This document shows, piece by piece, positions 38,119 to 63,667 of a DNA stretch of 64,000 bases. A program made the position numbers and the translations under genes. Positions within the stretch are counted from its first letter, which is position 1, and the number at the start of each line of letters is the position of its first letter. The DNA comes from Mustelus asterias (lineage: Eukaryota): the NCBI RefSeq assembly GCF_964213995.1, contig NW_027590578.1:1-64000 (forward strand). The letters run 5' to 3'. Under the pieces are notes generated by a model. The model ran no database searches. It saw only the letters and a program-made list of their open reading frames with translations, and had not been told where the DNA came from.

Positions 38119-38385
38119 GTGTTTCCCTGTCACTGTAGAAAACACAGCAGCCAATTTGGACTCAGTGTGACATTTCATTCAGTAATATTGTAGTGTTCTG
38201 TCTGTTTCAGGAATTGTGATTGGTGAACAGATATCAAACAGGACATTTCTCTGCTCTTCTTGGAAACAGTGACCATGTGATGTGTCACCTCCAGCTGAGA
38301 GGGAACACGGTGCCCCCGATTGAACAGGTCACCGAGAGGCTGGCAGCTCTGACGGTGCAGCGTTCCCTGAGCACGGCACTGTCTC
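38119..38385 (-). mobile_element. Degenerate DeuSINE (SacSINE1/AmnSINE-like); copies at ~47907 and ~57770
   Basis: CTGCTCTTCTTGGAAACAGTG..GAGAGGG..GGTGCAGCGTTCCCTGAGCACGGCACTG resembles the reverse Deu domain (recalled consensus, not aligned). Confidence 0.55.
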
Positions 38386-38944
38386 CTCGGTAAGTTCCCG
38401 GATTCTTATTCCTGCCAGACTGCCTGTGTCCTCTGGAGCGGAAAGAATCTCTGAACCGACTGGAGACAGAATCCGGGAAATCCTAGGAAGTGGTGGCCAC
38501 TCATTAACCCAATCCGGGAAAGAAACGGATTTAAATAAAATAATTGAAATTAAAAATAAACTTTTCTGGCCCGTGGAAACAAGAGGACAATGAATTTAAT
38601 CTCCAGAAAGAAATTTCAGTCGGAAACAGAAAGAAAGATTTTTATTGATGCCTTTTACAGACTTCAGATGTCCGAAAGCGCTTTCTAACCCAAGGAAGCT
38701 CATTTCCAGTGTCGCGCTGTGGTGATGTTAGAAACTTTATTAACACAGAAAACAGTGGGAATGTTTAATTCTCTGTCAGACAGGGTTGCCACACTGATCC
38801 AGGAATAAAGAGATTGCGGAGTCCAGGTATTTGAAGGTTACTTTGAACTCTCTCACACACAGGGACACACGCACACACTCTCCCTCTGTCTCTCGATGCA
38901 AAATCTCTGTCAGAGAGTGTGGCAAAACCTGTGCAAAATCTCAC

Positions 38945-39242
38945 TAGCTGTCCTGTCTGGAGACAATACACATCTGTTTAACCTGTGCTTAATGCTCCCT
39001 CCACTCACATTGTCTGTACCTTTAAGACTTGATTAGTTGTAAAGACTCACATTCCAATCATTATTCATGTAAATTGAGTTTGTGTCTTTGTGCACTGTTT
39101 GTGATCAGAACTCCCACTCACCTGACGAAGGGGCAGCACTCCTTTGGTTTTTGCTACCAAATAAACCTGTTGGACTTTAACCTGGTGTTGTAAGACTTCT
39201 TATCGTGTTTACCCCAGTCCAACGCCGGCATCTCCACATCTT
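38945..39242 (+). mobile_element. Penelope-like terminal repeat (copies ~48730-49029, ~58595-58900)
   Basis: Same terminal sequence as 19872-20064. Confidence 0.6.
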
Positions 39243-40802
39243 GTCTAGGTCACCAGAGGAACAGATTGCGAAATGATGAGACATGTCTTTATGGCGCAAT
39301 GCATGCAGTTAACCTCCAAATCTACTTCAGAGCAGCGGTAATGAAAGTTCTCAGATGTAGAGATCATGTAGCCAAAAATTACTGTTATATTATCTTCCAG
39401 GGCCGTTAACTGTGATTGCCCCAGCAATTCCTAGAACCAAACATTGGATGTGTCAAAGTCTGCTGTAGTTATGAATACTTGGATTGCTCAATAATAATTT
39501 CAACACAGACTCACCTCGTTAAAAAGGCTGTATTATCCGACAGTACCACGCACCACTTCCTGAATCAGTCGCTAATCAGCCATGCTAAACTCTCCCTCAG
39601 TGTACCCGAACAGGCGCCGGAGTGTGGCGACGAGGGGATTTCCACAGTAACTTCACTGCAGTGTTAATATAAGCTTACTTGCTACACTAATGAATAGACT
39701 GAAGCACTGAACTTCTGATCTAACCAATGACAGAAATCGACCAGCGGCAGCAATGTCTAGAAAAGCACAATGGTGTTAGAGTGAATTGCAGCAACCGGAA
39801 GCTGTGGCCGGGGACACCGCAGACTCAAAGCTGATGGAAGTGCGGAGTTCTCAGCGGCAGTCGCAGGTGATGGAGAGGAAACAGCGACAGCTGAACCTGC
39901 AGCAGTCTGTGACAACCTGCATCTGCTCACTGCTCAAGTGACTGAGAAAAAATAGTGACGGACGGGCGCGAATGGATCAGAAACAATTGACTCTCCCTGT
40001 GGCTCAATGAAAGATCTTTCCCAATTGCTCTTCTCACCCCCCATTCCACGAGTTGTTTTCCGTTCTCAAGGTCTGGCAATGCCTTTTTGAAATTTACTAT
40101 TGAATGCTCTTCCTTTATAGTTTGCGGCGCTCTACTCCAGATGGTAACAAATAGCAATGCAATGAATAACATTTATCGATCTCTGTCCACTTTTCTGTGA
40201 AAATGGGATGACTTGGTCGTTTATTTATCGAACAGGTGCATTGCTGCCTTTGTTCGTTCAAATGAACAGCGAACCGGTCTGAGAGACCTTGGGACCTATC
40301 TCAATGTCTGGCCCTCTACCACTTCATTAAATATCCCATAACTTACCCGGAATACTGCTCTGTCTAGATAGGTACAGAAAGCTTTCAGATATGGAGTGAC
40401 TGTCCCTTAGCACTCCTGACTGGTCTTCCAGAGCTTTCAACTCCGATGGAGTCTGGGAAACTCAATGTCTGTCACTCGTCCCTGCAGCCGAACTTAGAAT
40501 GTGTCACAGACTGGAATGGGATTTATCACAGGAAATAGACAAGGATCCTTTTAATATTGACTCAACGAATACTACGATTATTCCAATTTGGAAGCACCAT
40601 GGAACATGCGCTGCTCGGATGACATTTCCACAGAAAATAACCCAATTTAAATGTATTTTATCCGTTCTTTTTTAATTTTAAAGAGTAAACCCAAATCGGC
40701 AACAGGTCTCACTGATCGGGTGACTGTGGCGCGTATCCAAGGGAGAGAGTGATTAAAAACCCAGCTCTCTGCACAGGCTCCACTTTCTGGATGATCGCGG
40801 CA

Positions 40803-40841
40803 GGTTTTTGTACGGCCCTGTACGGTCTTTGCTAGACTGTG
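40803..40841 (-). other. 23-RSS of inverted V
   Basis: CACAGTC-23-ACAAAAACC on the minus strand. Confidence 0.93.
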
Positions 40842-41344
40842 CCTCCATCGCACAGAAATAGGTGGCGGTGTCTGTCAGCCGAGCTTCACTAACATTCAGA
40901 ACGCTGTGGTTCTCTGAGAAACTGTACTGAGCCGTGATCCTGCCCTGATCGCTGGTACCGCTCACCAGGTGCTGCACGGTTCTGTCTGGATTTTGTCTGT
41001 ACCATTGAAGGACCTTTCCAGCTCCTGTGTTTGAACAGTTCAACGATGCAGTGGCTCCCTCGGTAACAACCATTGACTCCGGAGACTGTGATAGCTCTTC
41101 ACTGCCAGCGGCACCTGGGAAGAATATGTACATTTGCAGTAAGAACATATCGTACTATAATGTAGCACAATAAAGTACCATTGTATTCACAATTCGAGAT
41201 GATATAATAAAGCTGAGTACAATTTAACAGAACATAACATTGCTGAGGTGTGAAATATTGCTGTCAGAAATAGTGACCACACTTACACTGAGGGAACAGT
41301 AAGGAATCCAGGAAAATAATCACCAAAGTGAAGCTCAGAAACAT
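40842..41344 (-). CDS. TRAV: Inverted TCR V segment, family B copy 1 (leader 41344-41287, V exon 41114-40842), short CDR2
   Basis: MFLSFTLVIIFLDSLLFPQ, phase-1 GTAAGT...CCAG, then AAGSEELSQSP..C..WYRQNP..DTATYFCAM. Confidence 0.9.
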
Positions 41345-41559
41345 GTTGGATCCTATCGGCTTGTGAGAAACAGCTGTCAGCAGATCCCAGGCTGAGAGAA
41401 GCTCCTGGGAAAGCAATGCGATTGGATATCAAACCGAGCCCCAAACCAGTCACAGAGTGGCGGTGAGAGCCGGGTCTCTGGGACTTGTGATCACAAAGTG
41501 AATCAGTGAGGGAGCTTCAGCATTGATAGTGCGGGGGAGGAGAGTGCGCATGCGACAGC

Positions 41560-41620
41560 GCATCCGGTATTGTGACGTCAGAACATCCGGCATTCTGACG
41601 TCAGAGCATCCGCGTCATTG
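41560..41620. promoter_or_regulatory. 23-bp CRE repeat, 2 TGACGTCA
   Basis: GAACATCCGGCATTCTGACGTCA unit, ~230 bp upstream of the V-B1 ATG. Confidence 0.7.
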
Positions 41621-41626
41621 TAACCT

Positions 41627-41950
41627 CATAGAATCATAGAATGCCTACAGTGCAGAAGGAGACCATTCGGCCCATTGAACCCGCACCGACCACAGCCCCA
41701 CCCAGGCCCTCTCCCCGTAACCTCACATCTTTACCCCGCGAATCCCCCTGACACGAGGGGGCAATTCAACATGGCCAGTCAACCCAACCCGCACATCTTT
41801 GGACTGAGGGAGGAAACCGGAGCACCCGGAGGAAACCCACGCAGACACGGGGAGAATGTGCAAACTCCAGACAGACAGTGACCCGAGGCTGGAATCGAAC
41901 CGGGGGCGCTGTGAGGCAGCTGTGCTAACCACTGTGGCACCGTGCCGCCC
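41627..41950 (-). mobile_element. HE1-like SINE inside the CRE-rich element (copies 51486-51809, 61308-61631)
   Basis: CATAGAATCATAGAATG...ACCGTGCCGCCC. Confidence 0.88.
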
Positions 41951-43175
41951 AACGTCAGACGTCAGAACATCGTGTATTGTGACGTCGGAATGCGGATATG
42001 TGTGGCGTCAGAATGTGTGACGTCACCCTGTAGCCCATGTGACGTCACTGTGAATTGCGAGTGACGCCAGTGGGTCTGGATTGTGGGTCAGAGACATTTC
42101 TCCTGGAGCTGATCTGAATATTCAGCCCTGAGTTGATGGGAATTAACAGCTGATCTGAAACATCTCTCCCGGAGCTGATGTGAATATCCAGCTGTGAGGT
42201 TGCGGAATTAAGATCTAATCAGAAGCAGGGAGGTCCTGCCTTCATGTGGGCCAGTGGTACAAGCAACACCGGGATCCACAGCCAAGGCTTATGAGAAAAA
42301 AGCTCTGTTTTGAAACAAATATAAGGAAGATTTTGCTAATACAGGTCTCCCAGTAGAATCTATCTGCCAGTTAAGCTTCCTTTTCTGCTTCCCATAAATT
42401 GTTTATTCCTTTAAAGCCAAGGTTTGATGTTCAGCTCAACTCCGGGAAAGTGTTTCCGCCGGCAGAACTTTGGAAAACACAAGCGTCTACTTTAGGAGGG
42501 GAGAGTGCAATGGAAAGATTAGATTAATTGATTACTCTCCGATTTGTTAAACTTGGAAGGTGGTCATCGGATCCCTACAGTGCAAAAGGAGGCCATTCGG
42601 CCCATCAAGTCTGCACCGACTCTTATCTAGGCCCTGCGGTGTTGAAAGAGATGGCGGAAGAAGAGATAATAGTAAGTTTTAGAAGGAAATGAGAGATAAG
42701 TTGAAAGCAGAAAAATGTCCGTGACTGTGAGAGATTCGAGGTTTGAAAGATGAATTGAAGAAATCTGTCAACTCTGAAATCTGTTAGGCAAAGATACCAT
42801 GGGCCGAGTGGCCACATCTCCTGCATTGATACGCTATGTTTCTATTTTGTTCATGTCCCTGGCCCCGTAATGCCCCTCCCTCTCTATTTCTTCTCAGTCA
42901 CTTGGATAGTGAGCAGGTGCAGAATGGTGACAGATTCCGGAGATGGAAGTCTCGCTATTTCTGTTCCGGGTGCAGCTGAAGCTGCCGCACACTCCACTCA
43001 ATATTTTGTCTACTGCATCCCCGCCCACGACTTCCGTTTTCTGCTCTCGTGATTGGACGGATTGCTGCCGCTGCTCCATTCCTCTCATTGGTTGGATCAG
43101 CAGTGCAGTGGAACAGTGTCTTTCTGTCTCTGACAGGATTTCACTCATTGCAGAGTTACAGACTCAGGAAGCATC

Positions 43176-43673
43176 ATGGTGAACTATCTCACTCCGATCC
43201 TCATCATTCTCTCACTTCTCAGTAAGCATTTTCTTCCCAGTAAAACTACAAGCTCCTCCTGACTGCTGTAACCCAGATATTCTTGTTGATAAAACAATAG
43301 TGATGATGATAATTGTATCGTTTAATCTGAGGCTAACTCTGATTGTCATATTGCTGTTGTTTCTGTTAGAATGGAGCCACCAAGACGAAGTGGAACAATT
43401 GGATCCTGGAATAAAGGTTAAAGAGGAAAATGATGTCACACTAACCTGCGCTTTGAAAACAAGCGATTCCAACCCTTATGTGTACTGGTACAGTCAGCAG
43501 CCCGGGAAAGCTCCAGTGTACATGTTTAAGCTGATTGGAGAGAATGTACAAAAGAATCCCGACCTCAATGATCGGTTTTCTTCCAAATTTGATAAAAAGA
43601 ACAAGACTAGCGAGCTAACGATCAGTAACACACTGATTTCCGACAGCGCCGGGTACTTCTGTGCCATGAAGCC
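43176..43673 (+). CDS. TRAV: TCR alpha/delta V segment, family C copy 1 (leader 43176-43221, V exon 43370-43673)
   Basis: MVNYLTPILIILSLL, phase-1 GTAAG...TTAG, then WSHQDEVEQ..C..WYSQQPGKAP..DSAGYFCAMK. Confidence 0.9.
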
Positions 43674-43713
43674 CACACTGCTGCAGAGATATAGCGAATC
43701 CCGTACAAAAACC
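43674..43713 (+). other. RSS with 24-bp spacer
   Basis: CACACTG-24-ACAAAAACC. Confidence 0.9.
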
Positions 43714-44030
43714 CCACACTGGCAGTTCCAGTTAGTTCCCAGCAGGGTGCGCGCGCACACACGCGGGTAATTCAATTTCCACAGAGAGAGTGACAGAGAT
43801 TCTTAACATTGCAACAAAAGACAACACTCAAAAACAGCAACTGGTGTGGTCCAGTTGCAGTTACATTAGTTAATGGTCGGAGCTTACATTTGCAATATCG
43901 ATCTGAGCTACTTCAACACTTTTTCTTTCGTTTTCGATGCCCTTCTCTGCCTATTTGTTGCAAACTGTCCATGTCTGCTGATTTATGGAAATTCTGCACA
44001 TTTCCTTTCAAGTCTTTAACATAAGCATTA

Positions 44031-45835
44031 AAGTTGTTGGAGAAGATTCTTAAAGATAGGATGTATGCGCATTTAGAAAGGAATATACTCATTAACGATA
44101 GTCAACATGGTTTTGTGAGAGGGAGGTCATGCCTCACTAACCTGGTGGTGTTTTTTGAAGAAGTGACGAAAATGGTTGACGAAGGAAGGGCCGTGGATGT
44201 TGTCTATATGGACTTTAGTAAAGCGTTTGACAAAGTCCCTCATGGTCGGCTAGTGAAAAAGGTTGGATCCCATGGGATAAAGGGGGAGGTGGCTAGATGG
44301 GTGGAGAACTGGCTTGGTCATAGAAGACAGAGGGTGGTAGTGGAAGGGTCTTTTTCCGGCTGGAGGCCTGTGACTAGTGGTGTACCGCAGGGCTCTGTAT
44401 TGGGACCTCTGCTGTTTGTGATTTATATAAATGATCTGGAAGAAGGAGTAACTGGGGTGATCAGTAAGTTTGCGGACGACACAAAACTGGCAGGACTTGC
44501 AGATAGTGAGGAACATTGTCAGAGGCTACAGAAGGATATAGATAGGCTGGAAATTTGGGCAAGGAAATGGCAGATGGAGTTCAATCCTGATAAATGCGAA
44601 GTGATGCATTTTGGTGGGAATAATGTAGGGAGGAGCTACACGATAAATGGAAGAACCATAAAGGGTGTAGAGACGCAGAGGGACCTGGGTGTGCAAGTCC
44701 ACAGATCTTTGAAGGTGACGTCACAGGTGGAGAAGGTGGTGAAGAAGGCATATGGCATGCTTGCCTTTATAGGACGGGGCATAGAGTATAAAAGTTGGGG
44801 TCTGATGTTGCAGATGTATAGAACGTTGGTTCGGCCGCATTTGGAATACTGCGTCCAGTTCTGGTCGCCACACGACCAGAAGGACGTGGAGGCTTTGGAG
44901 AGAGTACAGAGGAGGTTTACCAGGATGTTGCCTGGTATGGAGGGGCTTGGTTATGAGGAGAGATTGGGGAAACTGGGGTTGTTCTCCTTGGAAAGACGGA
45001 GGATGAGGGGAGACTTAATAGAGGTGTATAAAATTATGAAAGGCATAGATAGGGTGAACGGTGGGAAGCTTTTCCCCGGGTCGGTGGTGACGTTCACGAG
45101 GGGTCATAGGTTCAAGGTGAAGGGGGGGAGGTTTAACACGGATATCAGAAGGACATATTTCACACAGAGGGTCGTGGGGGCCTGGAATGTGTTGCCGGGC
45201 AAGGTGGTGGAGGCGGACACACTGGGAACGTTTAAGACTTATCTAGACAGCTATATGAACGGAGTGGGAATGGAGGGATACAAAAGAGTGGTCTAGTTTG
45301 GACCAGGGAGCGGCGCGGGCTAATTGTTCCTGGTTTCTCGTTTCAAGGCTTCATTCTATGATCATCTTGCTGGTGCCAGTACAGAGCGAGACTGCGGATA
45401 GTTGGGAACCTGTCTCGGGGGCAGGGAATTCATATGGTTTTCGTGGAAGTGGAAATGACTCGGGTTGGGAAGCATTTTCCGATCAGGGCCATTGTGATCT
45501 CCTGGACTCGTTTCGATCGCCTCAGGGGGTCGGAGAGGAATTTCCCAGATTTTTTTTTTCCCCATATTGGCCCTGGGGTTTTTCACTCTGGGTTTTCGCC
45601 TCTCCCTGGAGATCACATGGTCTGGAATGGGGGGGTGGGGGTGAGTTAATAGGTTGTAATGAACAAAGCATCGTAGCTGTGAGGGACAGCTCGGTGGATA
45701 GGATATTGGTATGTAGATAGGCTGGAAAATTGGGCGGGGATCCTGGATTCAGGATTCAATCCTGGACCGGGGAGCGGCGCGGGCTTGGAGGGCCGAAGGG
45801 CCTGTTCCTGTGCTGTATTGTTCTTTGTTGTTCTT
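44031..45835 (+). mobile_element. Young 5'-truncated CR1/HER1 LINE; open RT-to-C-terminus frame 44034-45296
   Basis: SQHGF..RSCLTNL..DFSKAFDKV..GVPQGSVLGP..FADD; ends GGGCCTGTTCCTGTGCTGTATTGTTCTTTGTT. Confidence 0.95.
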
Positions 45836-46785
45836 TTTCTGTTCCCTTGTACATTAAATCAGGACCTCTCCAATCCGGTTGCTCAGCTATTGGGTCCCAT
45901 TTTCAATCCACGTCACTGATGAGGATTTCGCTTTGTACTGAATCACTTACTAACCCGATACTCCTGGTGCAAGAATGCTGGTCCGCAGTGTGGAATGGAC
46001 ATTCAGCTGCCTCTCATATAGAGAGGCAAAGTTACAGAATTTCCAATTTGACATTGTTATTGAGTTCAGCTCCTTGCAGATAAATCCCAGCGGTCACCAC
46101 ACTGCCTATGGTAGCCCCACCCACAGTTTTCCTGTGCTGTTCGCACTCTGATATTTTATTGGAGATGTTGATCTTTGTTGCTTTTCCCTGTTTGGCACTG
46201 ATTGGATCAGCAGTCCAATGGGGAGACAAGCTATATTTCCACTCTGATAGAAGATTTGACAGGCTGCAAAATTACAAATTGAGAGAACATCATATGGAAA
46301 TATCTCAGACCATTCATTGTTCTGTCACTTCTTATGAGGTAGATGTTTTGACTAAAAAATCATCCTCCCCCGCACGATAGCTGATATCCCAAACATGATT
46401 AATAACAAACTGCTTGTTATGTTGCTGTGAGGATGGATATTGTCATTCTCCATGTCAGAACAGAGCCATCAGGACTCAGGGGAATGGTCGGTTCCTGAAA
46501 TGACGGTTGAAGGGGAAAGTAATCCCCTGTCGTGGGATGACCAAATTCACTTTGTTCCATTCGTCCCTCCGCCAATAGGATGAATTGCAGATAAAGGAAC
46601 TGTGAGGTCATTGGTTGAACTGAAGAACATAGGAGGTTGAATCCGATTGGATGTCATCTGATGACGTTTTCAATGGTAAACCAATCAACAGGTAGCCGGA
46701 TATGACTCACCCTTTTCCCAACTCTTGACCGACACAAATTCAGCTTCAACCCGTTCTGGTCAAATTCGCTGCGAGCTCTGCAAAC

Positions 46786-47660
46786 ATGTGTCTTGTTACT
46801 CTGTATTTATTCCTCACAGCGGCAGCTCTGTTAATCGGTAAGTTCACAAGTTGCTCACTCTGTGTTACACACCATTACCACACACTATATTCTGTCGGGC
46901 GGTTCGCTCAATGCAAGGGGGTTGATCAGGGAATGGATTGATCACAACATCGAAAAGTTATTTGGATCTCTCTGGTCTCAACACTGAACACTGTTGGGAT
47001 TCGGCACATTTCCCCCAGGGATTGATAGAGAATGAGTTGGGCTCAGATTCCAGCTCCTCTGATACCAGTGAACCACTTTGGCAAACATCACATTTCAAAC
47101 AGACCGTGAGCAGTTTCCAGTTACAGGGACTGAAGACGAGGAACTGATCTCGTTAGAAAGAAGAGAATGTTTATGGTGGAAGTTTTATTTAATCGCCACA
47201 AACGTCTTCCCATTCCAGCCACTGAACTGTGAAAAATATGTTTCTGTTTTGCTCTCTGATTTCTCCCTGAGATTATTTTTGCCGATAACGGGCAATATCT
47301 GGGAAAACTGAGATAAATTGCAATGCTTAATTTAATATTTCTTTGGACTCTTCCAGGACATTCCCGAGGAGATTCTGTTTCACAGACAGCGGCTGCAGTC
47401 ACCGTCACTGAAGGAGATGATGTTCGGTTGCTCTGTAATTACACAGCTACAGACATCAACCCTTATCTATTCTGGTACCGTCAGTATCCCAGTGGATCCA
47501 TGGAATATCTGCTGCAGACAAATAAATACACCGGGAACACAGGGAGATCCAAAGGGGACCGTTTTTCAGCAGAACTCAATGATACAACCCGCACAGTCCC
47601 TCTGAAAGTGTCTGAAACAGAGCTGGCAGACTCCGGGGTGTATTACTGCGCACTGAGACC
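46786..47660 (+). CDS. TRAV: TCR alpha/delta V segment, family D copy 1 (leader 46786-46837, V exon 47357-47660)
   Basis: MCLVTLYLFLTAAALLI, phase-1 GTAAGT...CCAG, then HSRGDSVSQ..C..WYRQYP..DSGVYYCALR. Confidence 0.92.
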
Positions 47661-47699
47661 CACAGAGACACAGAGCTGGGCTGAACCTCTACAAAAACT
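47661..47699 (+). other. 23-RSS
   Basis: CACAGAG-23-ACAAAAACT. Confidence 0.92.
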
Positions 47700-50592
47700 G
47701 CCAGAGCCTCACTCAACATAACAGAGCGTTAGGCAAACATTGTGATCAGAGTGAGTCTGATGTGGAACCTGAAATCGTGCTGGTATCTCAAACTTTTAAT
47801 TCTAATATATACATATGTATTATTTATAAATATATTACTAAACAAAAACAATGGGGGCAGCTTAGGGAATGAACATTTGACTATTTATAGAGTTTGATGT
47901 CCCAAAGTGTTTCCCTGTCACTGTACAAAACACAGCAGCCAATTTGGACTCAGTGTGACGTTTCATTCAGTAATATTGTAGTGTTCTGTCTGTTTCAGGA
48001 ATTGTGATTGGTGAACAGATATCAAACAGGACATTTCTCTGGTCTTCTTGGAAACAGTGACCATGTGATGTATCACCTCCAGCTGAGAGGCAACACGGTG
48101 CCCCCGATTGAACAGGTCACCGAGAGGCTGGCAGCTCTGACTGTGCACCGTTCCCTGAGCACTGCACTGTCTCCTCGGTAAGTTCCCGGATTCTTATTCC
48201 TGCCAGACTGCCTGTGTCCTCTGGAGCGGAAAGAATATCTGAACCGACTGGAGACAGAATCCGGGAAATCCTAGGAGGTGGTGGCCACTCATTAACCCAA
48301 TCCGGGAAAGAAACGGATTTAAATTAAAAAATGAAATTAAAAATAAACTTTTCTGGCCGTGGAAATATGAAGACAATGAATTTAATCTCCAGAAAGATAT
48401 TTCAGTCGAAAACAGAAAGAAATATTTTTATGGATGCCTTTTACAGACTTCAGATGTCCAAAAGCGCTTTTTAACCCAAGGAAACTCATGTCCAGTGTCG
48501 CCGCTGTGGTGATGGCAGAAACTTTATTAACACAGAAAACAGTGGGAATGTTTAATTCTCTGTCAGACAGGGTTGCCACACTGATCCAGGAATAAAGAGA
48601 TTGCGGAGTCCAGGTATTTGAAGGTTACTTTGAACTCTCTCACACACAGGGACACACGCACACACTCTCCCTCTGTCTCTCGATGCAAAATCTCTGTCAG
48701 AGAGTGTGGCAAAACCTGTGCAAAATCTCACTAGCTGTCCTGTCTGGAGACAATACACATCTGTTTAACCTGTGCTTAATGCTCCCTCCACTCACATTGT
48801 CTGTACCTTTAAGACTTGATTAGTTGTAAAGACTCACATTCCAATCATTATTCATGTAAATTGAGTTTGTGTCTTTGTGCACTGTTTGTGATCAGAACTC
48901 CCACTCACCTGACGAAGGGGCAGCGCTCCTTTGGTTTTTGCTACCAAATAAACCTGTTGGACTTTAACCTGGTGTTGTGAGACTTCTTACTGTGTTTACC
49001 CCAGTCCAACGCCGGCATCTCCACATCTTGTCTAGGTCACCAGAGGAACAGATTGCGAAATGATGAGACATATCTTTATGGCGCAATGCATGCAGTTAAC
49101 CTCCAAATCTACTTCAGAGCAGCGGTAATGAAAGTTCTCAGATGTAGAGATCATGTAGCCAAAAATTACTGTTATATCATCTTCCAGGGCCGTTAACTGT
49201 GATTGCCCCAGCAATTCCTAGAACCAAACATTGGATGTGTCAAAGTCTGCTGTAGTTATGAATACTTGGATTGCTCAATAATAATTTCAACACAGACTCA
49301 CCTCGTTAAAAAGGCTGTATTATCCGACAGTACCACGCACCACTTCCTGAATCAGTCGCTAATCAGCCATGCTAAACTCTCCCTCAGTGTACCCGAACAG
49401 GCGCCGGAGTGTGGCGACGAGGGGATTTCCACAGTAACTTCACTGCAGTGTTAATATAAGCTTACTTGCTACACTAATGAATAGACTGAAGCACTGAACT
49501 TCTGATCTAACCAATGACAGAAATCGACCAGCGGCAGCAATGTCTAGAAAAGCACAATGGTGTTAGAATGAATAGCAGCAACCGGAAGCTGTGGCCGGGG
49601 TCACCGCAGACTCAAAGCTGATGGAAGTGCGGAGTTCTCAGCGGCAGTCGCAGGTGATGGAGAGGAAACAGCGACAGCTGAAACCTGCAGCAGTCTGTGA
49701 CAACCTGCATCTGCTCACTGCTCAAGTGACTGAGAAAAAATAGTGTCGGGCGGGCGCGAATGGATCAGAAACAATTGACTCTCCCTGTGGCTCAATGAAA
49801 GACCTTTCCCAATTGCTCTTCTCACCCCTCATTCCACGGGTTGTTTTCCGTTCTCAAGGTCTGACAATGCCTTTTTGAAATTTACTATTGAATGCTCTTC
49901 CTTTATAGTTTGCGGCGCTCTACTCCAGATGGTAACAAATATCAATGCAATGAATAACATTTATCGATCCCTGTCCACTTTTCTGTGAAAATGGGATGAC
50001 TTGGTCGTTTATTTATCGAACAGGTTCATTGCTGCCTTTGTTCGTTCAAATGAACAGCGAACCGGTCTGAGAGACCTTGGGACCTCTCTCAATGTCTGGC
50101 CCTCTACCACTTCATTAAATATCCCATAACTTACCCGGAATACTGCTCTGTCTAGATAGGCACAGAAAGCTTTCAGATATGGAGTGACTGTCCCTTAGCA
50201 CTCCTGACTGGTCTTCCAGAGCTTTCAACTCCGATGGAGTCTGGGAAACTCAATGTCTGTCACTCGTCCCTGCAGCCGAACTTAGAATGTGTCACAGACT
50301 GGAATGGGATTTATCACAGGAAATAGACAAGGATCCTTTTAATATTGACTCACGGAATACCACGATTATTCCAATTTGGAAGCACCATGGAACATGCGCT
50401 GCCCGGATGACATTTCCACAGAAAATAACCCAATTTAAATGTATTTTATCCGTTCTTTTTTGATTTTAAAGAGTAAACCCAAATCGGCAACAGGTCTCAC
50501 TGATCGGGTGACTGTGGCGCGTATCCAAGGGAGAGAGTGATTAAAAGTCCAGCTCTCTAAACAGGCTGTACACGTTCCGGGTGATCGCGGCA

Positions 50593-50631
50593 GGTTTTTG
50601 TACGGCCCTGTACGGTCTTTGCTAGACTGTG
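50593..50631 (-). other. 23-RSS of inverted V
   Basis: CACAGTC-23-ACAAAAACC. Confidence 0.93.
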
Positions 50632-51134
50632 CCTCCATCGCACAGAAATAGGTGGCGGTGTCTGTCAGCCGAGCTTCACTAACATTCAGAACGCTGTGGT
50701 TCTCTGAGAAACTGTACTGAGCCGTGATCCTGCCCTGATCGCTGGTACCGCTCACCAGGTGCTGCACGGTTCTGTCTGGATTTTGTCTGTACCATTGAAG
50801 GAGCTGTCCAGTTACTGTGGTTGAACAGTTCAACGATGCAGTGGCTCCCTCGGTAACAACCACTGACTCCGGAGACTGTGATAGCTCTTCACTGCCAGCG
50901 GCATCTGGGAAGAATATGTACATTTGCAGTAAGAACATATCGTACTATAATGTAGCACAATAAAGTACCATTGTATTCACAATTCGAGATGACACAATAA
51001 AGCTGAGTACAATTTAACAGAACATAACATTGCTGAGGTGTGAAATATTGCTGTCAGAAATAGTGACCACACTTACACTGAGGGAACAGTAAGGAATCCA
51101 GGAAAATAATCACCAAAGTGAAGCTCAGAAACAT
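50632..51134 (-). CDS. TRAV: Inverted TCR V segment, family B copy 2 (leader 51134-51077, V exon 50904-50632)
   Basis: Same architecture as copy 1; CDR1 STTVTGQLLQ. Confidence 0.9.
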
Positions 51135-51347
51135 GTTGGATCCTATCGGCTTGTGTGAAACAGCTGTCAGCAGATCCCAGGCTGAGAGAAGCTCCTGGGA
51201 AAGCAATGCTATTGGATATCAAACCGAGCCCCAAACCAGTCACAGAGTGTCGGTGAGAGCCGGGTCTCTGGGACTTGTGATCACAAAGTGAATCAGTGAG
51301 GGAGCTTCAGCATTGATAGTGCGGGGGAGGAGAGTGCGCATGCGACA

Positions 51348-51475
51348 GAACATCCGGTATTGTGACGTCAGAACATCCGGCATTCTGACGTCAGAACATC
51401 CGGCATTCTGACGTCAGAACATCCGGCATTCTGACGTCAGAACATCCGGCATTCTGACGTCAGAGCATCCGCGGC
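51348..51475. promoter_or_regulatory. 23-bp CRE repeat, 5 TGACGTCA
   Basis: TGACGTCA at 51363, 51386, 51409, 51432 and 51455. Confidence 0.8.
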
Positions 51476-53039
51476 ATTGGAACCTCATAGAATCATAGAA
51501 TGCCTACAGTGCAGAAGGAGACCATTCGGCCCATTGAACCCGCACCGACCACAGCCCCACCCAGACCCTCTCCCCGTAACCTCACATCTTTACCCCGCGA
51601 ATCCCGCTGACAGGAGGGAGCAATTCAACATGGCCAGTCAACTTAACCCGCACATCTTGGGACTGTGGGAGGAAACCGGAGCACCCGGAGGAAACCCACG
51701 CAGACACGGGGAGAACATCCAAACTCCAGACAGACAGTGACCCGAGGCTGGAATCGAACCGGGGGCGCTGTGAGGCAGCTGTGCTAACCACTGTGGCACC
51801 GTGCCGCCCAACGTCAGACGTCAGAACATCGTGTATTGTGACGTCGGAATGCGGATATGTGTGGCGTCAGAATGTGTGACGTCACCCTGTAGCCCATGTG
51901 ACGTCACTGTGAATTGCGAGTGACGTCAGTGGGTCTGGATTGTGGGTCAGAGACATCTCTCCTGGAGCTGATCTGAATATTCAGCCCTGAGTTGATGGGA
52001 ATTAACAGCTGATCTGAAACATCTCTCCCGGAGCTGATGTGAATATCCAGCTGTGAGGTTGCGGAATTAAGATCTAATCAGAAGCAGGGAGGTCCTGCCT
52101 TCATGTGGGCCAGTGGTACAAGCAACACCGGGATCCACAGCCAAGGCTTATGAGAAAAAGCTCTGTTTTGAAACAAATATAAGGAAGATTTTGCTAATAC
52201 AGGTCTCCCAGTAGAATCTATCTACCAGTTAAGCTTCCTTTTCTGCTTCCCATAAATTGTTTATTCCTTTAAAACCAAGGTTTGATGTTCAGGTCAACTC
52301 CGGGAAAGTGTTTCCGCCGGCAGAACTTTGGAAAACACAAGCGTCTACTTTAGGAGGGGAGAGTGCAATGGAAAGATTAGATTAATTGATTACTCTCCGA
52401 TTTGTTAAACTTGGAAGGTGGTCATCGGATCCCTACAGTGCAAAAGGAGGCCATTCGGCCCATCAAGTCTGCACCGACTATTGTCGAGGCCCTATCCCTG
52501 CGGTGTCTAAAGAGATGGCGGAAGAAGAGATAATAGTAAGTTTTAGAAGGAAATGAGAGATAAGTTGAAAGCAGAAAAATGTCCGTGACTGTGAGAGATT
52601 CGAGGTTTGAAAGATGAATTGAAGAAATCTGTCAACTCTGAAATCTGTTAGGCAAAGATACCATGGGCCGAGTGGCCACATCTCCTGCATTGATACGCTA
52701 TGTTTCTATTTTGTTCATGTCCCTGGCCCCGTAATGCCCCTCCCTCTCTATTTCTTCTCAGTCACTTGGATAGTGAGCAGGTGCAGAATGGTGACAGATT
52801 CCGGAGATGGAAGTCTCGCTATTTCTGTTCCGGGTGCAGCTGAAGCTGCCGCACACTCCACTCAATATTTTGTCTACTGCATCCCCGCCCACGACTTCCG
52901 TTTTCTGCTCTCGTGATTGGACGGATTGCTGCCGCTGCTCCATTCCTCTCATTGGTTGGATCAGCAGTGCAGTGGAACAGTGTCTTTCTGTCTCTGACAG
53001 GATTTCACTCATTGCAGAGTTACAGACTCAGGAAGCATC

Positions 53040-53537
53040 ATGGTGAACTATCTCACTCCGATCCTCATCATTCTCTCACTTCTCAGTAAGCATTTTCTTC
53101 CCAGTAAAACTACAAGCTCCTCCTGACTGCTGTAACCCAGATATTCTTGTTGATAAAACAATAGTGATGATGATAATTGTATCGTTTAATCTGAGGCTAA
53201 CTCTGATTGTCATATTGCTGTTGTTTCTGTTAGAATGGAGCCACCAAGACGAAGTGGAACAATTGGATCCTGGAATAAAGGTTAAAGAGGAAAATGATGT
53301 CACACTAACCTGCGCTTTGAAAACAAGCGATTCCAACCCTTATGTGTACTGGTACAGTCAGCAGCCCGGGAAAGCTCCAGTGTACATGTTTAAGCTTATT
53401 GGAGAGAATGTACAAAGGAACACCGACCTCAATGATCGGTTTTCTTCCAAATTTGATAAAAAGAACAAGACTAGCGAGCTAACGATCAGTAACACACTGA
53501 TTTCCGACAGCGCCGGGTACTTCTGTGCCATGAAGCC
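53040..53537 (+). CDS. TRAV: TCR V segment, family C copy 2 (leader 53040-53085, V exon 53234-53537)
   Basis: As copy 1; CDR2 region NVQRNTDL. Confidence 0.9.
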
Positions 53538-53577
53538 CACACTGCTGCAGAGATATAGCGAATCCCGTACAAAAACC
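53538..53577 (+). other. RSS with 24-bp spacer
   Basis: CACACTG-24-ACAAAAACC. Confidence 0.9.
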
Positions 53578-53894
53578 CCACACTGGCAGTTCCAGTTAGT
53601 TCCCAGCAGGGTGCGCGCGCACACACGCGGGTAATTCAATTTCCACAGAGAGAGTGACAGAGATTCTTAACATTGCAACAAAAGACAACACTCAAAAACA
53701 GCAACTGGTGTGGTCCAGTTGCAGTTACATTAGTTAATGGTCGGAGCTTACATTTGCAATATCGATCTGAGCTACTTCAACACTTTTTCTTTCGTTTTCG
53801 ATGCCCTTCTCTGCCTATTTGTTGCAAACTGTCCATGTCTGCTGATTTATGGAAATTCTGCACATTTCCTTTCAAGTCTTTAACATAAGCATTA

Positions 53895-55700
53895 AAGTTG
53901 TTGGAGAAGATTCTTAAAGATAGGATGTATGCGCATTTAGAAAGGAATATACTCATTAACGATAGTCAACATGGTTTTGTGAGAGGGAGGTCATGCCTCA
54001 CTAACCTGGTGGTGTTTTTTGAAGAAGTGACCAAAATGGTTGACGAAGGAAGGGCCGTGGATGTTGTCTATATGGACTTTAGTAAAGCGTTTGACAAAGT
54101 CCCTCATGGTCGGCTAGTGAAAAAGGTTGGATCCCATGGGATAAAGGGGGAGGTGGCTAGATGGGTGGAGAACTGGCTTGGTCATAGAAGACAGAGGGTG
54201 GTAGTGGAAGGGTCTTTTTCCGGCTGGAGGCCTGTGACTAGTGGTGTACCGCAGGGCTCTGTATTGGGACCTCTGCTGTTTGTGATTTATATAAATGATC
54301 TGGAAGAAGGAGTAACTGGGGTGATCAGTAAGTTTGCGGACGACACAAAACTGGCAGGACTTGCAGATAGTGAGGAACATTGTCAGAGGCTACAGAAGGA
54401 TATAGATAGGCTGGAAATTTGGGCAAGGAAATGGCAGATGGAGTTCAATCCTGATAAATGCGAAGTGATGCATTTTGGTGGGAATAATGTAGGGAGGAGC
54501 TACACGATAAATGGAAGAACCATAAAGGGTGTAGAGACGCAGAGGGACCTGGGTGTGCAAGTCCACAGATCTTTGAAGGTGACGTCACAGGTGGAGAAGG
54601 TGGTGAAGAAGGCATATGGCATGCTTGCCTTTATAGGACGGGGCATAGAGTATAAAAGTTGGGGTCTGATGTTGCAGATGTATAGAACGTTGGTTCGGCC
54701 GCATTTGGAATACTGCGTCCAGTTCTGGTCGCCACACTACCAGAAGGACGTGGAGGCTTTGGAGAGAGTACAGAGGAGGTTTACCAGGATGTTGCCTGGT
54801 ATGGAGGGGCTTGGTTATGAGGAGAGATTGGGGAAACTGGGGTTGTTCTCCTTGGAAAGACGGAGGATGAGGGGAGACTTAATAGAGGTGTATAAAATTA
54901 TGAAAGGCATAGATAGGGTGAACGGTGGGAAGCTTTTCCCCGGGTCGGTGGTGACGTTCACGAGGGGTCATAGGTTCAAGGTGAAGGGGGGGAGGTTTAA
55001 CACGGATATCAGAAGGACATATTTCACACAGAGGGTCGTGGGGGCCTGGAATGTGTTGCCGGGCAAGGTGGTGGAGGCGGACACACTGGGAACGTTTAAG
55101 ACTTATCTAGACAGCTATATGAACGGAGTGGGAATGGAGGGATACAAAAGAGTGGTCTAGTTTGGACCAGGGAGCGGCGCGGGCTAATTGTTCCTGGTTT
55201 CTCGTTTCAAGGCTTCATTCTATGATCATCTTGCTGGTGCCAGTACAGAGCGAGACTGCGGATAGTTGGGAACCTGTCTCGGGGGCAGGGAATTCATATG
55301 GTTTTCGTGGAAGTGGAAATGACTCGGGTTGGGAAGCATTTTCCGATCAGGGCCATTGTGATCTCCTGGACTCGTTTCGATCGCCTCAGGGGGTCGGAGA
55401 GGAATTTCCCAGATTTTTTTTTTCCCCATATTGGCCCTGGGGTTTTTCACTCTGGGTTTTCGCCTCTCCCTGGAGATCACATGGTCTGGAATGGGGGGGT
55501 GGGGGTGAGTTAATAGGTTGTAATGAACAAAGCATCGTAGCTGTGAGGGACAGCTCGGTGGATAGGATATTGGTATGTAGATAGGCTGGAAAATTGGGCG
55601 GGGATCCTGGATTCAGGATTCAATCCTGGACCGGGGAGCGGCGCGGGCTTGGAGGGCCGAAGGGCCTGTTCCTGTGCTGTATTGTTCTTTGTTGTTCTTT
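53895..55700 (+). mobile_element. CR1/HER1 LINE, duplicated with the cassette (ORF 53898-55160)
   Basis: One amino-acid difference (D/Y) from the 44034 copy; same flanks. Confidence 0.95.
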
Positions 55701-56649
55701 TTCTGTTCCCTTGTAAATTAAATCAGGACCTCTCCAATCCGGTTGCTCAGCTATTGGGTCCCATTTTCAATCCACGTCACTGATGAGGATTTCGCTTTGT
55801 ATTGAATCACTTACTAACCCGATACTCCTGGTGCAAGAATGCTGGTCCGCAGTGTGGAATGGACATTCAGCTGCCTCTCATATAGAGAGACAAAGTTATA
55901 GAATTTCCAATTTGACATTGTTATTGAGTTCAGCTCCTTGCAGATAAATCCCAGCGGTCACCACACTGCCTATGGTAGCCCCACCCACAGTTTTCCTGTG
56001 CTGTTCGCACTCTGATATTTTATTGGAGATGTTGATCTTTGTTGCTTTTCCCTGTTTGGCACTGATTGGATCAGCAGTCCAATGGGGAGGCAAGCTATAT
56101 TTCCACTCTGATAGAAGATTTGACAGGCTGCAAAATTACAAATTGAGAGAACATCATATGGAAATATCTCAGACCATTCATTGTTCTGTCACTTCTTATG
56201 AGGTAGATGTTTTGACTAAAAAATCATCCTCCCCCGCACTATAGCTGATATCCCAAACATGATTAATAACAAACTGCTTGTTATGTTGCTGTGAGGATGG
56301 ATATTGTCATTCTCCATGTCAGAACAGAGCCATCAGGACTCAGGGGAATGGTCGGTTCCTGAAATGACGGTTGAAGGGGAAAGTAATCACCTGTCGTGGG
56401 ATGACCAAATTCACTTTGTTCCATTCGTCCCTCCGCCAATAGGATGAATTGCAGATAAAGGAACTGTGAGGTCATTGGTTGAACTGAAGAACATAGGAGG
56501 TTGAATCCGATTGGATGTCATCTGATGACGTTTTCAATGGTAAACCAATCAACAGGTAGCCGGATATGACTCACCCTTTTCCCAACTCTTGACCGACACA
56601 AATTCAGCTTCAACCCGTTCTGGTCAAATTCGCTGCGAGCTCTGCAATC

Positions 56650-57525
56650 ATGTGTCTTGTTACTCTGTATTTATTCCTCACAGCGGCAGCTCTGTTAATC
56701 GGTAAGTTCACAAGTTGCTCAAGTCTGTGTTACACACCATTACCACACACTATATTCTGTCGGGCGGTTCGCTCAATGCAAGGGGGTTGATCAGGGAATG
56801 GATTGATCACAACATCGAAAAGTTATTTGGATCTCTCTGGTCTCAACACTGAACACTGTTGGGATTCGGCACATTTCCCCCAGGGATTGATAGAGAATGA
56901 GTTGGGCTCAGATTCCAGCTCCTCTGATACCAGTGAACCACTTTGGCAAACATCACATTTCAAACAGACCGTGAGCAGTTTCCAGTTACAGGGACTGAAG
57001 ACGAGGAACTGATCCCGTTAGAAAGAAGAGAATGTTTATGGTGGAAGTTTTATTTAATCGCCACAAACGTCTTCCCATTCCAGCCGCTGAACTGTGAAAA
57101 ATATGTTTCTGTTTTGCTGTCTGATTTCTCCCTGAGATTATTTTTGCCGATAACGGGCAAATTCTGGGAAAACTGAGTGAAATTGCAATGTTTAATTTAA
57201 TATTTCTTTGGACTCTTCCAGGACATTCCCGAGGAGATTCTGTTTCACAGACAGCGGCTGCAGTCACCGTCACTGAAGGAGATGATGTTCGGTTGCTCTG
57301 TAATTACACATCTACAGACATCAACCCTTATCTATTCTGGTACCGTCAGTATCCCAGTGGATCCATGGAATATCTGCTGCAGACACATAAATACACCGGG
57401 AACACAGGGAGATCCAAAGGGGACAGTTTTTCAGCGGAACTCAATTATACAATCCGCACAGTCCCGCTGAAAGTGTCTAAAACAGAGCTGGCAGACTCCG
57501 GGGTTTATTACTGCGCACTGAGACC
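56650..57525 (+). CDS. TRAV: TCR V segment, family D copy 2 (leader 56650-56701, V exon 57222-57525)
   Basis: As copy 1 with six amino-acid changes; open frame. Confidence 0.9.
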
Positions 57526-57564
57526 CACAGAGACACAGAGCTGGGCTGAACCTGTACAAAAACT
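57526..57564 (+). other. 23-RSS
   Basis: CACAGAG-23-ACAAAAACT. Confidence 0.92.
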
Positions 57565-58769
57565 GCCAGAGCCTCACTCAACATAACAGAGCGTTAGGCA
57601 AACATTGTGATCAGACTGAGTCTGATCTGGAACCTGAAATCGTGCTGGTATCTCAAACTTTTAATTCTAATATATATATGTATTATTTATAAATATATTA
57701 CCAAACTAAAACAATGGGGGCAGCTCAGGGAATGAACATTTAACTATTTGTAGAGTTTGATGTCCCAAAGTGTTTCCCTGTCACTGTACAAAACACAGCA
57801 GCCAATTTGGACTCAGTGTGACGTTTCATTCAGTAATATTGTAGTGTTCTGTCTGTTTCAGGAATTGTGGTTGGTGAACAGATATCAAACAGGACATTTC
57901 TCCTGCTCTTCTTGGAAACAGTGACCATGTGATGTATCACCTCCAGCTGAGAGGGAACACGGTGCCCCCGATTGAACAGGTCACCGCGAGGCTGGCCGCT
58001 CTGACGGTGCAGCGTTCCCTGAGCACGGCACTGTCTCCTCGGTAAGTTCCCGGATTCTTATTCCTGCCAGACTGCCTGTGTCCTCTGGAGCGGAAAGAAT
58101 CTCTGAACCGACTGGAGACAGAATCCGGGAAATCCTAGGAAGTGGTGGCCACTCATTAACCCAATCCGGGAAAGAAACGGATTTAAATTTTAAAAATGAA
58201 ATTAAAAATAAACTTTTCTGGCCGTGGAAACAAGAGGACAATGAATTTAATCTCCAGAAAGAAATTTCAGTCGAAAACAGAAAGAAAGATTTTTATTGAT
58301 GCCTTTTACAGACTTCAGATGTCCGAAAGCGCTTTCTAACCCAAGGAAGCTCATTTCCAGTGTCGCGCTGTGGTGATGTTAGAAACTTTATTAACACAGA
58401 AAACAGTGGGAATGTTTAATTCTCTGTCAGACAGGGTTGCCACACTGATCCAGGAATAAAGAGATTGCGGAGTCCAGGTATTTGAAGGTTACTTTGAACT
58501 CTCTCACACACAGGGACACACGCACACACTCTCCCTCTGTCTCTCGATGCAAAATCTCTGTCAGAGAGTGTGGCAAAACCTGTGCAAAATCTCACTAGCT
58601 GTCCTGTCTGGAGACAATACACATCTGTTTAACCTGTGCTTAATGCTCCCTCCACTCACATTGTCTGTACCTTTAAGACTTGATTAGCTGTAAAGACTCA
58701 CATTCCAATCATTATTCATGTAAATTGAGTTTGTGTCTTTGTGCACTGTTTGTGATCAGAACTCCCACT

Positions 58770-58804
58770 CACCTGACGAAGGGGCAGCGCTCCGAAAGCT
58801 CGTG
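58770..58804 (+). ncRNA. Candidate minimal hammerhead ribozyme (Penelope type)
   Basis: CAC-CTGACGA-A-GGGGC-AGC-GCTCC-GAAA-GC-TC-GTG. Confidence 0.55.
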
Positions 58805-60460
58805 GTTTTTGCTACCAAATAAACCTGTTGGACTTTAACCTGGTGTTGTGAGACTTCTTACTTTGTTTACCCCAGTCCAACGCCGGAATCTCTACATCTT
58901 GTCTAGGTCACCAGAGGAACAGATTGCGAAATGATGAGACATGTCTTTATGGCGCAATGCATGCAGTTAACCTCCAAATCTACTTCAGAGCAGCGGTAAT
59001 GAAAGCTCTCAGATGTAGAGATCGTGTAGCCAAAAATTACTGTTATATCATCTTCCAGGGCCGTTAACTGAGATTGCGCCAGCAATTCCTAGAACCAAAC
59101 ATTGGATGTGTCAAAGTCTGCTGTAGTTATGAATACTTGGATTGCTCAATAATAATTTCAACACAGACTCACCTCGTTAAAAAGGCTGTATTATCCGACA
59201 GTACCACGCACCACTTCCTGAATCAGTCGCTAATCAGCCATGCTAAACTCTCCCTCAGTGTACCCGAACAGGCGCCGGAGTGTGGCGACGAGGGGATTTC
59301 CACAGTAACTTCACTGCAGTGTTAATATAAGCTTACTTGCTACACTAATGAATAGACTGAAGCACTGAACTTCTGATCTAACCAATGACAGAAATCGACC
59401 AGCGGCAGCAATGTCTCGAAAAGCACAATGGTGTTGGAATGAATAGCAGCAACCGGAAGCTGTGGCCGGGGTCACCGCAGACTCAAAGCTGATGGAAGTG
59501 CGGAGTTCTCAGCGGCAGTCGCAGGTGATGGAGAGGAAACAGCGACAGCTGAACCTGCAGCAGTCTGTGACAACCTGCATCTGCTCACTGCTCAAGTGAC
59601 TGAGAAAAAATAGTGACGGACGGGCGCGAATGGATCAGAAACAATTGACTCTCCCTGTGGCTCTATGAAAGACCTTTCCCAATTGCTCTTCTCACCCCCC
59701 ATTCCACGTGTTATTTTCCGTTCTCAAGGTCTGACAATGCCTTTTTGAAATTTACTATTGAATGCTCTTCCTTTATAGTTTGCGGCGCTCTACTCCAGAT
59801 GGTAACAAATATCAATGCAATGAATAACATTTATCGATCCCTGTCCACTTTTCTGTGAAAATGGGATGACTTGGTCGTTTATTTATCGAACAGGTTCATT
59901 GCTGCCTTTGTTCGTTCAAATGAACAGCGAACCGGTCTGAGAGACCTTGGGACCTCTCTCAATGTCTGGCCCTCTACCACTTCATTAAATATCCCATAAC
60001 TTACCCGGAATACTGCTCTGTCTAGATAGGCACAGAAAGCTTTCAGATATGGAGTGACTGTCCCTTAGCACTCCTGACTGGTCTTCCAGAGCTTTCAACT
60101 CCGATGGAGTCTGGGAAACTCAATGTCTGTCACTCGTCCCTGCAGCCGAACTTAGAATGTGTCACAGACTGGAATGGGATTTATCACAGGAAATAGACAA
60201 GGATCCTTTTAATATTGACTCACGGAATACCACGATTATTCCAATTTGGAAGCACCATGGAACATGCGCTGCCCGGATGACATTTCCACAGAAAATAACC
60301 CAATTTAAATGTATTTTATCCGTTCTTTTTTGATTTTAAAGAGTAAACCCAAATCGGCAACAGGTCTCACTGATCGGGTGACTGTGGCGCGTATCCAAGG
60401 GAGAGAGTGATTAAAAGTCCAGCTCTCTGCACAGGCTCCAATTTCTGGATGATCGCGGCA

Positions 60461-60499
60461 GGTTTTTGTACGGCCCTGTACGGTCTTTGCTACACTGTG
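60461..60499 (-). other. 23-RSS (consensus) of inverted V
   Basis: CACAGTG-23-ACAAAAACC. Confidence 0.95.
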
Positions 60500-61002
60500 C
60501 CTGCATCGCACAGAAATAGGTGGCGGTGTCTGTCAGCCGAGCTTCACTAACATTCAGAACGCTGTGGTTCTCTGAGAAACTGTACCGAGCCGTGATCCTG
60601 CCCTGATCGCTGGTACCGCTCACCAGGTGCTGCACGGTTCTGTCTGGATTTTGTCTGTACCAATGAAGGACCTGTCCAGTTACTGTGGCTGAACAGTTCA
60701 ACGATGCAGTGGCTCCCTCGGTAACAACCACTGACTCCGGAGACTGTGATAGCTCTTCACTGCCAGCGGCATCTGGGAAGAATATGTACATTTGCAGTAA
60801 GAACATATCGTACTATAATGTAGCACAATAAAGTACCATTGTATTCACAATTCGAGATGACACAATAAAGCTGAGTCCAATTTAACAGAACATAACATTG
60901 CTGAGGTGTGAAATATTGCTGTCAGAAATAGTGACCACACTTACACTGAGGGAACAGTAAGAAATCCAGGAAAATAATCAACAAAGTGAAGCTCAGAAAC
61001 AT
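60500..61002 (-). CDS. TRAV: Inverted TCR V segment, family B copy 3 (leader 61002-60945, V exon 60772-60500)
   Basis: Same architecture; CDR1 SATVTGQVLH. Confidence 0.9.
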
Positions 61003-61215
61003 GTTGGATCCTATCGGCTTGTGTGAAACAGCTGTCAGCAGATCCCAGGCTGAGAGAAGCTCCTGGGAAAGCAATGCTATTGGATATCAAACCGAGCCCC
61101 AAACCAGTCACAGAGTGTCGGTGAGAGCCGGGTCGCTGGGACTTGTGATCACAAAGTGAATCAGTGAGGGAGCTTCAGCATTGATAGTGCGGGGGAGGAG
61201 AGTGCGCATGCGACA

Positions 61216-61297
61216 GAACATCCGGTATTGTGACGTCAGAACATCCGGCATTGTGACGTCAGAACATCCGGCATTCTGACGTCAGAGCATCCGCGTC
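61216..61297. promoter_or_regulatory. 23-bp CRE repeat, 3 TGACGTCA
   Basis: TGACGTCA at 61231, 61254 and 61277. Confidence 0.75.
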
Positions 61298-62895: not shown

Positions 62896-63393
62896 ATGGT
62901 GAACTATCTCACTCCGATCCTCATCATTCTCTCACTTCTCAGTAAGTATTTTCTTCCCAGTAAAACTACAAGCTCCTCCTGACAGCTGTAACCCAGATAT
63001 TCTTGTTGATAAAACAATAGTGATGATGATAATTGTGTCGTTTAATCTGAGGCTAACTCTGATTGTCATATTGCTGTTGTTTCTGTTAGAAAGGAGCCAC
63101 CAAGACGAAGTGGAACAATTGGATCCTGTAATAAGGGTTAAAGAGGAAAATGATGTCACACTAACCTGCGCTTTGAAAACAAGCTATTCCAGCCCTAATG
63201 TGTACTGGTACAGTCAGCAGCCCGGGAAAGCTCCAGTGTACATGTTTCAGCTTATTGGAGAGATTGTGCAAAGGAACACCGACCTCAATGACCGGTTTTC
63301 TTCCAAATTTGATAAAAAGAACGAGACTACCGAGCTGACGATCAGTAACACACTGATTTCCGACAGCGCCGGGTACTTCTGTGCCATGAAGCC
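62896..63393 (+). CDS. TRAV: TCR V segment, family C copy 3 (leader 62896-62941, V exon 63090-63393)
   Basis: Open frame; CDR1 KTSYSSPNVY, CDR2 FQLIGEIVQR. Confidence 0.9.
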
Positions 63394-63433
63394 CACACTG
63401 CTGCAGAGACAGAGCCAATGCCGTGCAAAAACC
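63394..63433 (+). other. RSS with 24-bp spacer
   Basis: CACACTG-24-GCAAAAACC. Confidence 0.85.
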
Positions 63434-63667
63434 CCAGACTGGCAGTTCCAGTTAGTGCCCAGCAGGGTGCGCGCGCACACACGCGGGTAATTCAGTTTCC
63501 ACAGAGAGAGTGACAGAGATTCTTAACATTGCAACAAAAGACAACTCTCAAAAACAGCAACTGGTGTGGTCCAGTTGCAATTACATTAGTTAATGATCGG
63601 AACTTACATTTGCAATATCGATCTGAGATACTTCAACACCTTTTTTTTTCGTTTTCGATGCCTTTCT

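Follow-up and report, generated by a model that had tools for sequence, protein, structure and literature searches.

The window analysed here, the first 64,000 nucleotides of contig NW_027590578.1 of Mustelus asterias (GCF_964213995.1), contains on its minus strand, at 40842..41344, a V gene whose conserved Trp and second Cys lie so close together that little room is left for CDR2. The question raised by this locus is whether such a domain belongs to a distinct kind of receptor, binding independently of MHC or to non-classical MHC as the first-pass annotation had proposed, or to an ordinary TCR chain with a shortened loop. The gene is an intact TCR alpha/delta V gene with leader, phase-1 intron, V exon and 23-RSS, and with its ATG at 41344. 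Its parts, its two further copies in the window and the unit that carries all three are as follows:

41287..41344, minus strand: leader exon of 58 nt (19 codons plus 1 nt) encoding a hydrophobic signal peptide, with its phase-1 GT donor at 41286
41115..41286, minus strand: leader-V intron, 172 nt, GT..AG, phase 1
40842..41114, minus strand: V exon with Cys23, Trp41 (codon at 41004) and Cys104, CDR-IMGT about [5.2.3], Pfam V-set E 2e-12
40803..40841, minus strand: 23-RSS, heptamer CACAGTC at 40841 (one mismatch), 23-nt spacer, consensus nonamer ACAAAAACC
41573..41603, minus strand: pair of CRE-type sites, TGACGTCA, lying some 230-260 nt upstream of the ATG and likely part of the promoter
50632..51134, minus strand: second gene copy, intact, 93% amino acid identity, RSS heptamer at 50631, leader placed by the offset in the first copy
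60500..61002, minus strand: third gene copy, intact, 91% amino acid identity, consensus RSS at 60499, leader placed by the offset in the first copy
38119..63668, no strand assigned: tandem duplication unit of about 9.8 kb, 96-98% identical, about 2.6 units, from self-BLAST

The split leader, the presence of Cys23, Trp41 and Cys104 in the V exon and the 23-RSS at its 3' end identify a TRAV/TRDV gene. CRE-type sites have a role in TCR V promoters, and TGACGTCA/TGACG sites form a cluster upstream of this leader, at 41573-41603 and again at about 41950-42050 on the minus strand. No J or C segment was found in the window or in the next 30 kb of its contig. The mature domain has no extra Cys, and the Cys at the leader/V junction of the copy starting at 41344 sits inside the predicted signal peptide. 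The supporting V-delta of NAR-TCR is leaderless and carries an extra Cys. The first-pass annotation had separated the gene from that segment by its own leader and its lack of an additional Cys, and both observations hold, with a leader present in 42 of 43 intact copies of the family.

Each 9.8-kb unit combines a minus-strand short-CDR2 V gene with two plus-strand TRAV/TRDV families, so that orientation is mixed. The distance from Trp41 to Cys104, counted inclusively, is 51 residues in all three window copies, and among the neighbours it is 57 (at 32.2 kb), 60 (35.5 kb), 59 (43.4/53.3/63.2 kb) and 59 (47.4/57.3 kb); the counts of 51 against 57 and 60 given earlier are thus correct on re-measurement. 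The neighbours resemble nurse shark rows of the alphaV1/V2/V3/V5 type when compared by eye. The V genes at 35426-35760, at 43384-43710 and at the copies of the latter have RSS heptamers of the CACACTG type, and the nonamer of the gene at 35.5 kb seems, by eye, to be shifted from the usual 23 spacing. Elsewhere in the window there are satellite-like tandem repeats at 4278-6261 and 8337-9967, with a period of about 52 bp at 8.3-10 kb, and a 2-kb duplicate, 98.8% identical, at 6260-8271 and 29320-31329.

The extent of the loss depends on the genes with which the family is compared. Its nearest sister V genes in the same genome, at 42-48% identity, have a span of 54 residues in 11 of 11 fetched (L050-L060), and a tandem array of at least 13 such sisters, spaced at about 2.4 kb, was observed on the minus strand of C71:19,363,814-19,397,182. 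Aligned with the 54-residue sisters, the family shows a single gap, of three codons, located between the HLV motif of C' and the GRITA motif of the D strand, an interval of 6 codons in the family and 9 in the sisters, and the remainder is colinear. As judged from this alignment, the real change is an in-frame deletion of three residues, which shortens CDR2-IMGT from 5 to about 2. The CDR lengths of human TRAV22 are [5.5.3] (PMC7824213, Table 8), and TRAV22-like domains in our comparison set have a span of 54 against 51 here; CDR2-IMGT is therefore put at about 2 and the domain at [5.2.3].

The comparison set comprises 162 V-like domains from the 150 best proteins of a search of representatives, and it leans towards short domains because it is made of the query's best matches. 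Of these related domains, 84 have a span of 54-56 and only 3 a span of 52 or less. PGxxP, called the usual turn in the first-pass annotation, is carried by 46 of the 162 and is absent from the 54-residue sisters also, and its loss was rejected as a special feature; the NPDRTV said to replace it is indeed present in the gene at 40842..41344. Of the six to nine residues missing relative to the window neighbours, three are, on these alignments, specific to the family, and the others reflect a short C''-D region common to a larger group of V-alpha domains. The statement that CDR2 is nearly absent holds insofar as about two IMGT positions are left, while the comparison with spans of 57-60 overstates the loss, since sisters and TRAV22-like domains stand at 54.

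A search of the shark's own genome gave, among 150 scored matches, 55 with at least 60% identity, of which 52 were examined (49 fetched and the 3 in the window). Open copies number 43, each of exactly 51 residues, and the span is therefore not due to chance; a script located the leader in all but one of them. They represent 34 different sequences at the nucleotide level and 29 at the protein level, identical copies on separate contigs being possibly assembly or haplotype duplicates. The other 9 of the 52 are shortened, contain stops or do not have the conserved Asp preceding Tyr-x-Cys. Family copies lie in both orientations on contigs C119, C90 and C106, so the gene is inverted relative to its window neighbours, as had been described, while inversion as a trait of the family is rejected. 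A search of protein databases gave one relative only, truncated and 81% identical. Four sequencing runs of unrecorded kind contain family variants and no splice joints and have no bearing on expression, and C-alpha was not located, the Pfam TCR-alpha constant model being without a match in the genome. Some short-CDR2 copies were observed 8-45 kb from C1-set exons of the IgH-cluster type (C89:1,489,648; C143:816,540; C128:292,649; C173:718,416; C420:96,971). These are likely co-duplicated orphons, in line with the TCR alpha/delta-type V exons between IgH clusters reported in PMC12227049.

A counterpart is found in nurse shark. Ott et al. 2018 (PMC5931798) list in their source data 447 TCR-alpha clones whose CDR3-J junctions are complete, obtained from a C-alpha-primed RACE library, and row 403 of the Table 1 source data, clone aV9.1J_T09_102810 (alphaV9.1), has a span of 51 and the motif LVSGT-x-D-x-GRI. 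Over the first 400 characters of the clone, which do not include J and C, it agrees with the family V at 48 of 84 residues (about 57%) with no gap, as translated and counted by eye without an alignment tool. Rows 391-394 and 400-402 are nurse shark 54-residue sisters. Across rows 385-403 the label alphaV9.1 covers at least four unrelated V lineages, so this published name does not denote a clade. The family cut-off of that study is 85% nucleotide identity, to be set beside the roughly 57% protein identity across species here; in the passages that treat the analysed groups, the alpha CDR2 is 5-7 long, and these contain no comment on the clone of row 403. Row 403 is apparently the only one of its kind among the 447, since two family motifs of 8-9 letters match that row alone, a figure that is not an estimate of usage because family primers were used in a further amplification of the library. 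A known shark TRAV family with the same CDR2 length and ordinary usage had been named beforehand as the finding that would tell against a special binding mode; the nurse shark sequence largely answers to that description, in that length and motif are seen in row 403, while usage is one clone of 447. No match to the family motifs was found in 18 of the 19 files of the bamboo shark supplements of PMC10322711. A literature search found no description of a short-CDR2 shark TRAV, though further shark TCR papers may contain one. The novelty once attached to the gene is nevertheless not supported, as an alpha cDNA of the same length exists in nurse shark, and TRAV3 of salmonids and TRDV1 of ruminants are known to be without CDR2.

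The closest relatives of the family are TRAV by PDB sequence matches, by representatives and by trees, and the gene sits among TRAV/TRDV genes. In a quick tree of 76 rows the family groups at an SH-aLRT of 93, and it joins the shark clades of 54 residues and a database V of equal span in a group at 94 among TRAV-type sequences. A careful tree of 30 rows has a branch at 90/93 that sets these sequences, along with one long-branch row, apart from all others; in this tree the family is not one clade, as the long-branch row falls inside it, and the grouping has no starred support. A place among TAILV or IgH-like V genes was rejected, since the CDR2 is the shortest in the set (a VH-like gene would have a long one) and the closest sequences are TRAV.

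AlphaFold models were made of the family V and of a sister V, each with a mean pLDDT of 88.2 and each without J and hence without a G strand. The family model has a C' strand at 44-46 and a two-residue C'' bridge, the sister model C' at 43-48 and C'' at 53-55, and confidence in the family model is lowest in the C'-C'' region (block mean 79). In the predicted structure the C'-C'' hairpin is shortened but still present. Of the 87 residues of the family model, 83-85 superpose on TCR V-alpha and light-chain V domains at 1.3-1.7 A, with Z of 12.4-13.4, for example TRAV22 in 4udt (Z 12.9, rmsd 1.4 A, 85 residues), and the best single-domain PDB sequence matches are TCR alpha chains. FR2 is complete with all 17 positions, and Tyr42 and Gln44, which we take to be residues of the pairing face, do not vary among the 34 distinct alleles.

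We therefore favour, with a probability of about 0.8, an intact multi-copy elasmobranch TCR alpha/delta V family with an in-frame deletion of three codons in CDR2, likely serving as the ordinary V of a paired alpha, and sometimes delta, chain. An ordinary paired segment is preferred to a nanobody-like novelty because of the nurse shark alpha cDNA of equal length and the bony fish V genes without CDR2; the C region used in Mustelus asterias would, going by the single nurse shark clone, be C-alpha. Through its 23-RSS the V would be joined by RAG to a J-alpha (or D-delta), some copies rearranging by deletion and others by inversion, and the domain would pair with V-beta or V-gamma. With the C'-C'' hairpin trimmed, the alpha CDR2 may make few or no contacts with the MHC helices, and recognition would be carried by CDR1, CDR3 and the partner chain, as proposed for the CDR2-less TRAV3 of salmonids. 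Against the ordinary reading, a span of 51 lies at the short tail of the comparison set, and some copies adjoin delta-type D-J-C units, not a J-alpha array.

One such compact unit, on the minus strand of C90:1,081,000-1,109,900 (L061-L063, L067), comprises a V (23-RSS), a single D (12/23 RSS) and five J along with exons for C and for the transmembrane segment; the presence of a D and of the transmembrane exon is the ground for assigning it to delta. The delta-type C exon has 19 open-frame copies in the assembly, 83-100% identical, some of which may be assembly duplicates; three lie on C71 (7.14, 11.04 and 12.27 Mb), one of the 19 has been placed within a V-D-J5-C-TM unit, and matching J segments occur at 20 places. 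The C90-type units look like multi-copy TCR-delta miniclusters among IgH clusters, and a literature search found nothing clearly describing such miniclusters.

On this arrangement rests the proposal that the family is used mainly in delta chains through inversional joining to nearby duplicated D-J-C units, with a CDR2 free to shrink because gamma-delta receptors bind antigen without MHC. The C90 unit, the 19 C exons and the location of family copies downstream of several of them, at 39-80 kb on C90, C106, C119, C436 and C71, give it some weight, and at least one intact copy (C119:645,723, L036) faces its unit in the orientation for inversion. Moreover, five of the seven nurse shark delta V families are common to alpha (PMC5931798), and the CDR2-less V genes of ruminants are TRDV1 (PMC7824213). 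However, the only expressed orthologue seen belongs to an alpha-chain set, the majority of copies near such units are oriented alike and downstream of them, or else damaged (L043, L044, L047, L048), and no J or C accompanies the window copies over the range given above; main use in delta chains is accordingly held to be improbable.

Similarly unlikely, in our estimate, is an ancient V lineage of elasmobranchs, its CDR2 reduced to a stump, with some 30 distinct proteins that differ in CDR1 and in the D-E (HV4-like) loop and with some copies placed beside duplicated delta V-D-J-C units, that would equip a gamma-delta or alpha-beta subset to bind antigen without docking on MHC helices. Were it true, such a subset would be a paired-chain parallel to the VNAR paratope. 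Among the 34 alleles, CDR1 shows pN of 0.339 against pS of 0.033 over 5 codons, and pN is well under pS in FR1 and FR2, all as pairwise counts that are not independent; the D-E loop shows pN of 0.155 against pS of 0.112 among paralogues.

A specialised alpha V for non-classical MHC or an invariant T-cell subset, its short CDR2 held by selection, is very doubtful. Length and motif are kept in two sharks only about 57% identical, and none of the 34 distinct alleles differs in amino acid at the two CDR2 codons, but invariance is just as complete in 16 of 73 pairs of adjacent framework columns, so that this constancy is unremarkable and was rejected as a sign of selection. The diversified CDR1 and the 29 distinct proteins are, moreover, unlike an invariant receptor, and salmon TRAV3 shows no J restriction (PMC8559430).

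The notion of a VNAR-like, single-domain or NAR-TCR-type V can practically be dismissed, for although the Trp-Cys span is short and paralogues vary in CDR1 and the D-E loop, where VNAR mutates, the loop signal comes mostly from a split of two subfamilies, no non-canonical Cys is present, the gene is a single V with a single 23-RSS within a TRAV array whose closest sequences are TRAV, and the nurse shark counterpart is an alpha cDNA. VNAR has 8 strands instead of 10 through deletion of FR2-CDR2 (PMC4622739), and the earlier analogy with it is not supported: FR2 is complete at 17 positions and the model retains C' and a C'' remnant, so in these features the family is not VNAR-like. VNAR was absent among the 50 listed fold matches, which were TCR alpha and light-chain V, though VNAR may score similarly; two VNAR motifs had no match in the genome, and the trees therefore have no VNAR row.

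On the preferred reading of an ordinary paired chain, the family extends to cartilaginous fish the short-CDR2 TCR V genes known from teleosts and ruminants. The natural pair of V genes with a CDR2 of 2 and of 5 residues in the same frame could serve to test how far MHC restriction depends on germline contacts of the alpha CDR2. The short-CDR2 family is so far a result at the level of annotation, and the duplicated TCR-delta-type units may matter more.

Among known systems, VNAR and the V of NAR-TCR share with the family a reduced CDR2 (PMC4622739, PMC12227049), but VNAR has lost two strands through its FR2-CDR2 deletion and is unpaired, whereas the family V retains FR2 and C'. Mammalian V-alpha domains of the TRAV22/TRAV41 type, at [5.5.3], have the same fold and a similarly short C''-D region; TRAV22 keeps a five-residue CDR2, however, and the deletion in ruminant TRDV1, whose cattle and sheep genes are without CDR2 (PMC7824213), is of nine residues against three in the family. 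In salmonids all TRAV3 genes are without CDR2, as are relatives in cod, goby, sea bass and barramundi, and in salmon about 8.5% of TRAV usage falls to TRAV3, which combines with diverse J, inverted V genes being used normally (PMC8559430). TRAV3 and trout TRBV6 are, like the family, multi-gene TCR V subgroups with CDR2 lost; they are expressed, and altered binding to peptide-MHC is proposed, the authors considering domains without CDR2 unlikely to dock on it in the usual manner. The CDR2-IMGT of TRAV3 is 0 and that of the family about 2. The 54-residue sister clades (L050-L060 and the nurse shark rows) are colinear with the family at 42-46% identity, share the HLV...DQ.GRITA frame and have no PGxxP, but their CDR2 is three residues longer, with a longer C' and a three-residue C'' in the model. 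Closest is row 403 of nurse shark: it is a single clone whose alphaV9.1 label is mixed with 54-residue sisters and unrelated V, whereas the Mustelus family comprises 29 distinct proteins, yet it has the same CDR1 length, is colinear with the family, likewise has no PGxxP, and occurs as a rearranged cDNA in a TCR-alpha set.
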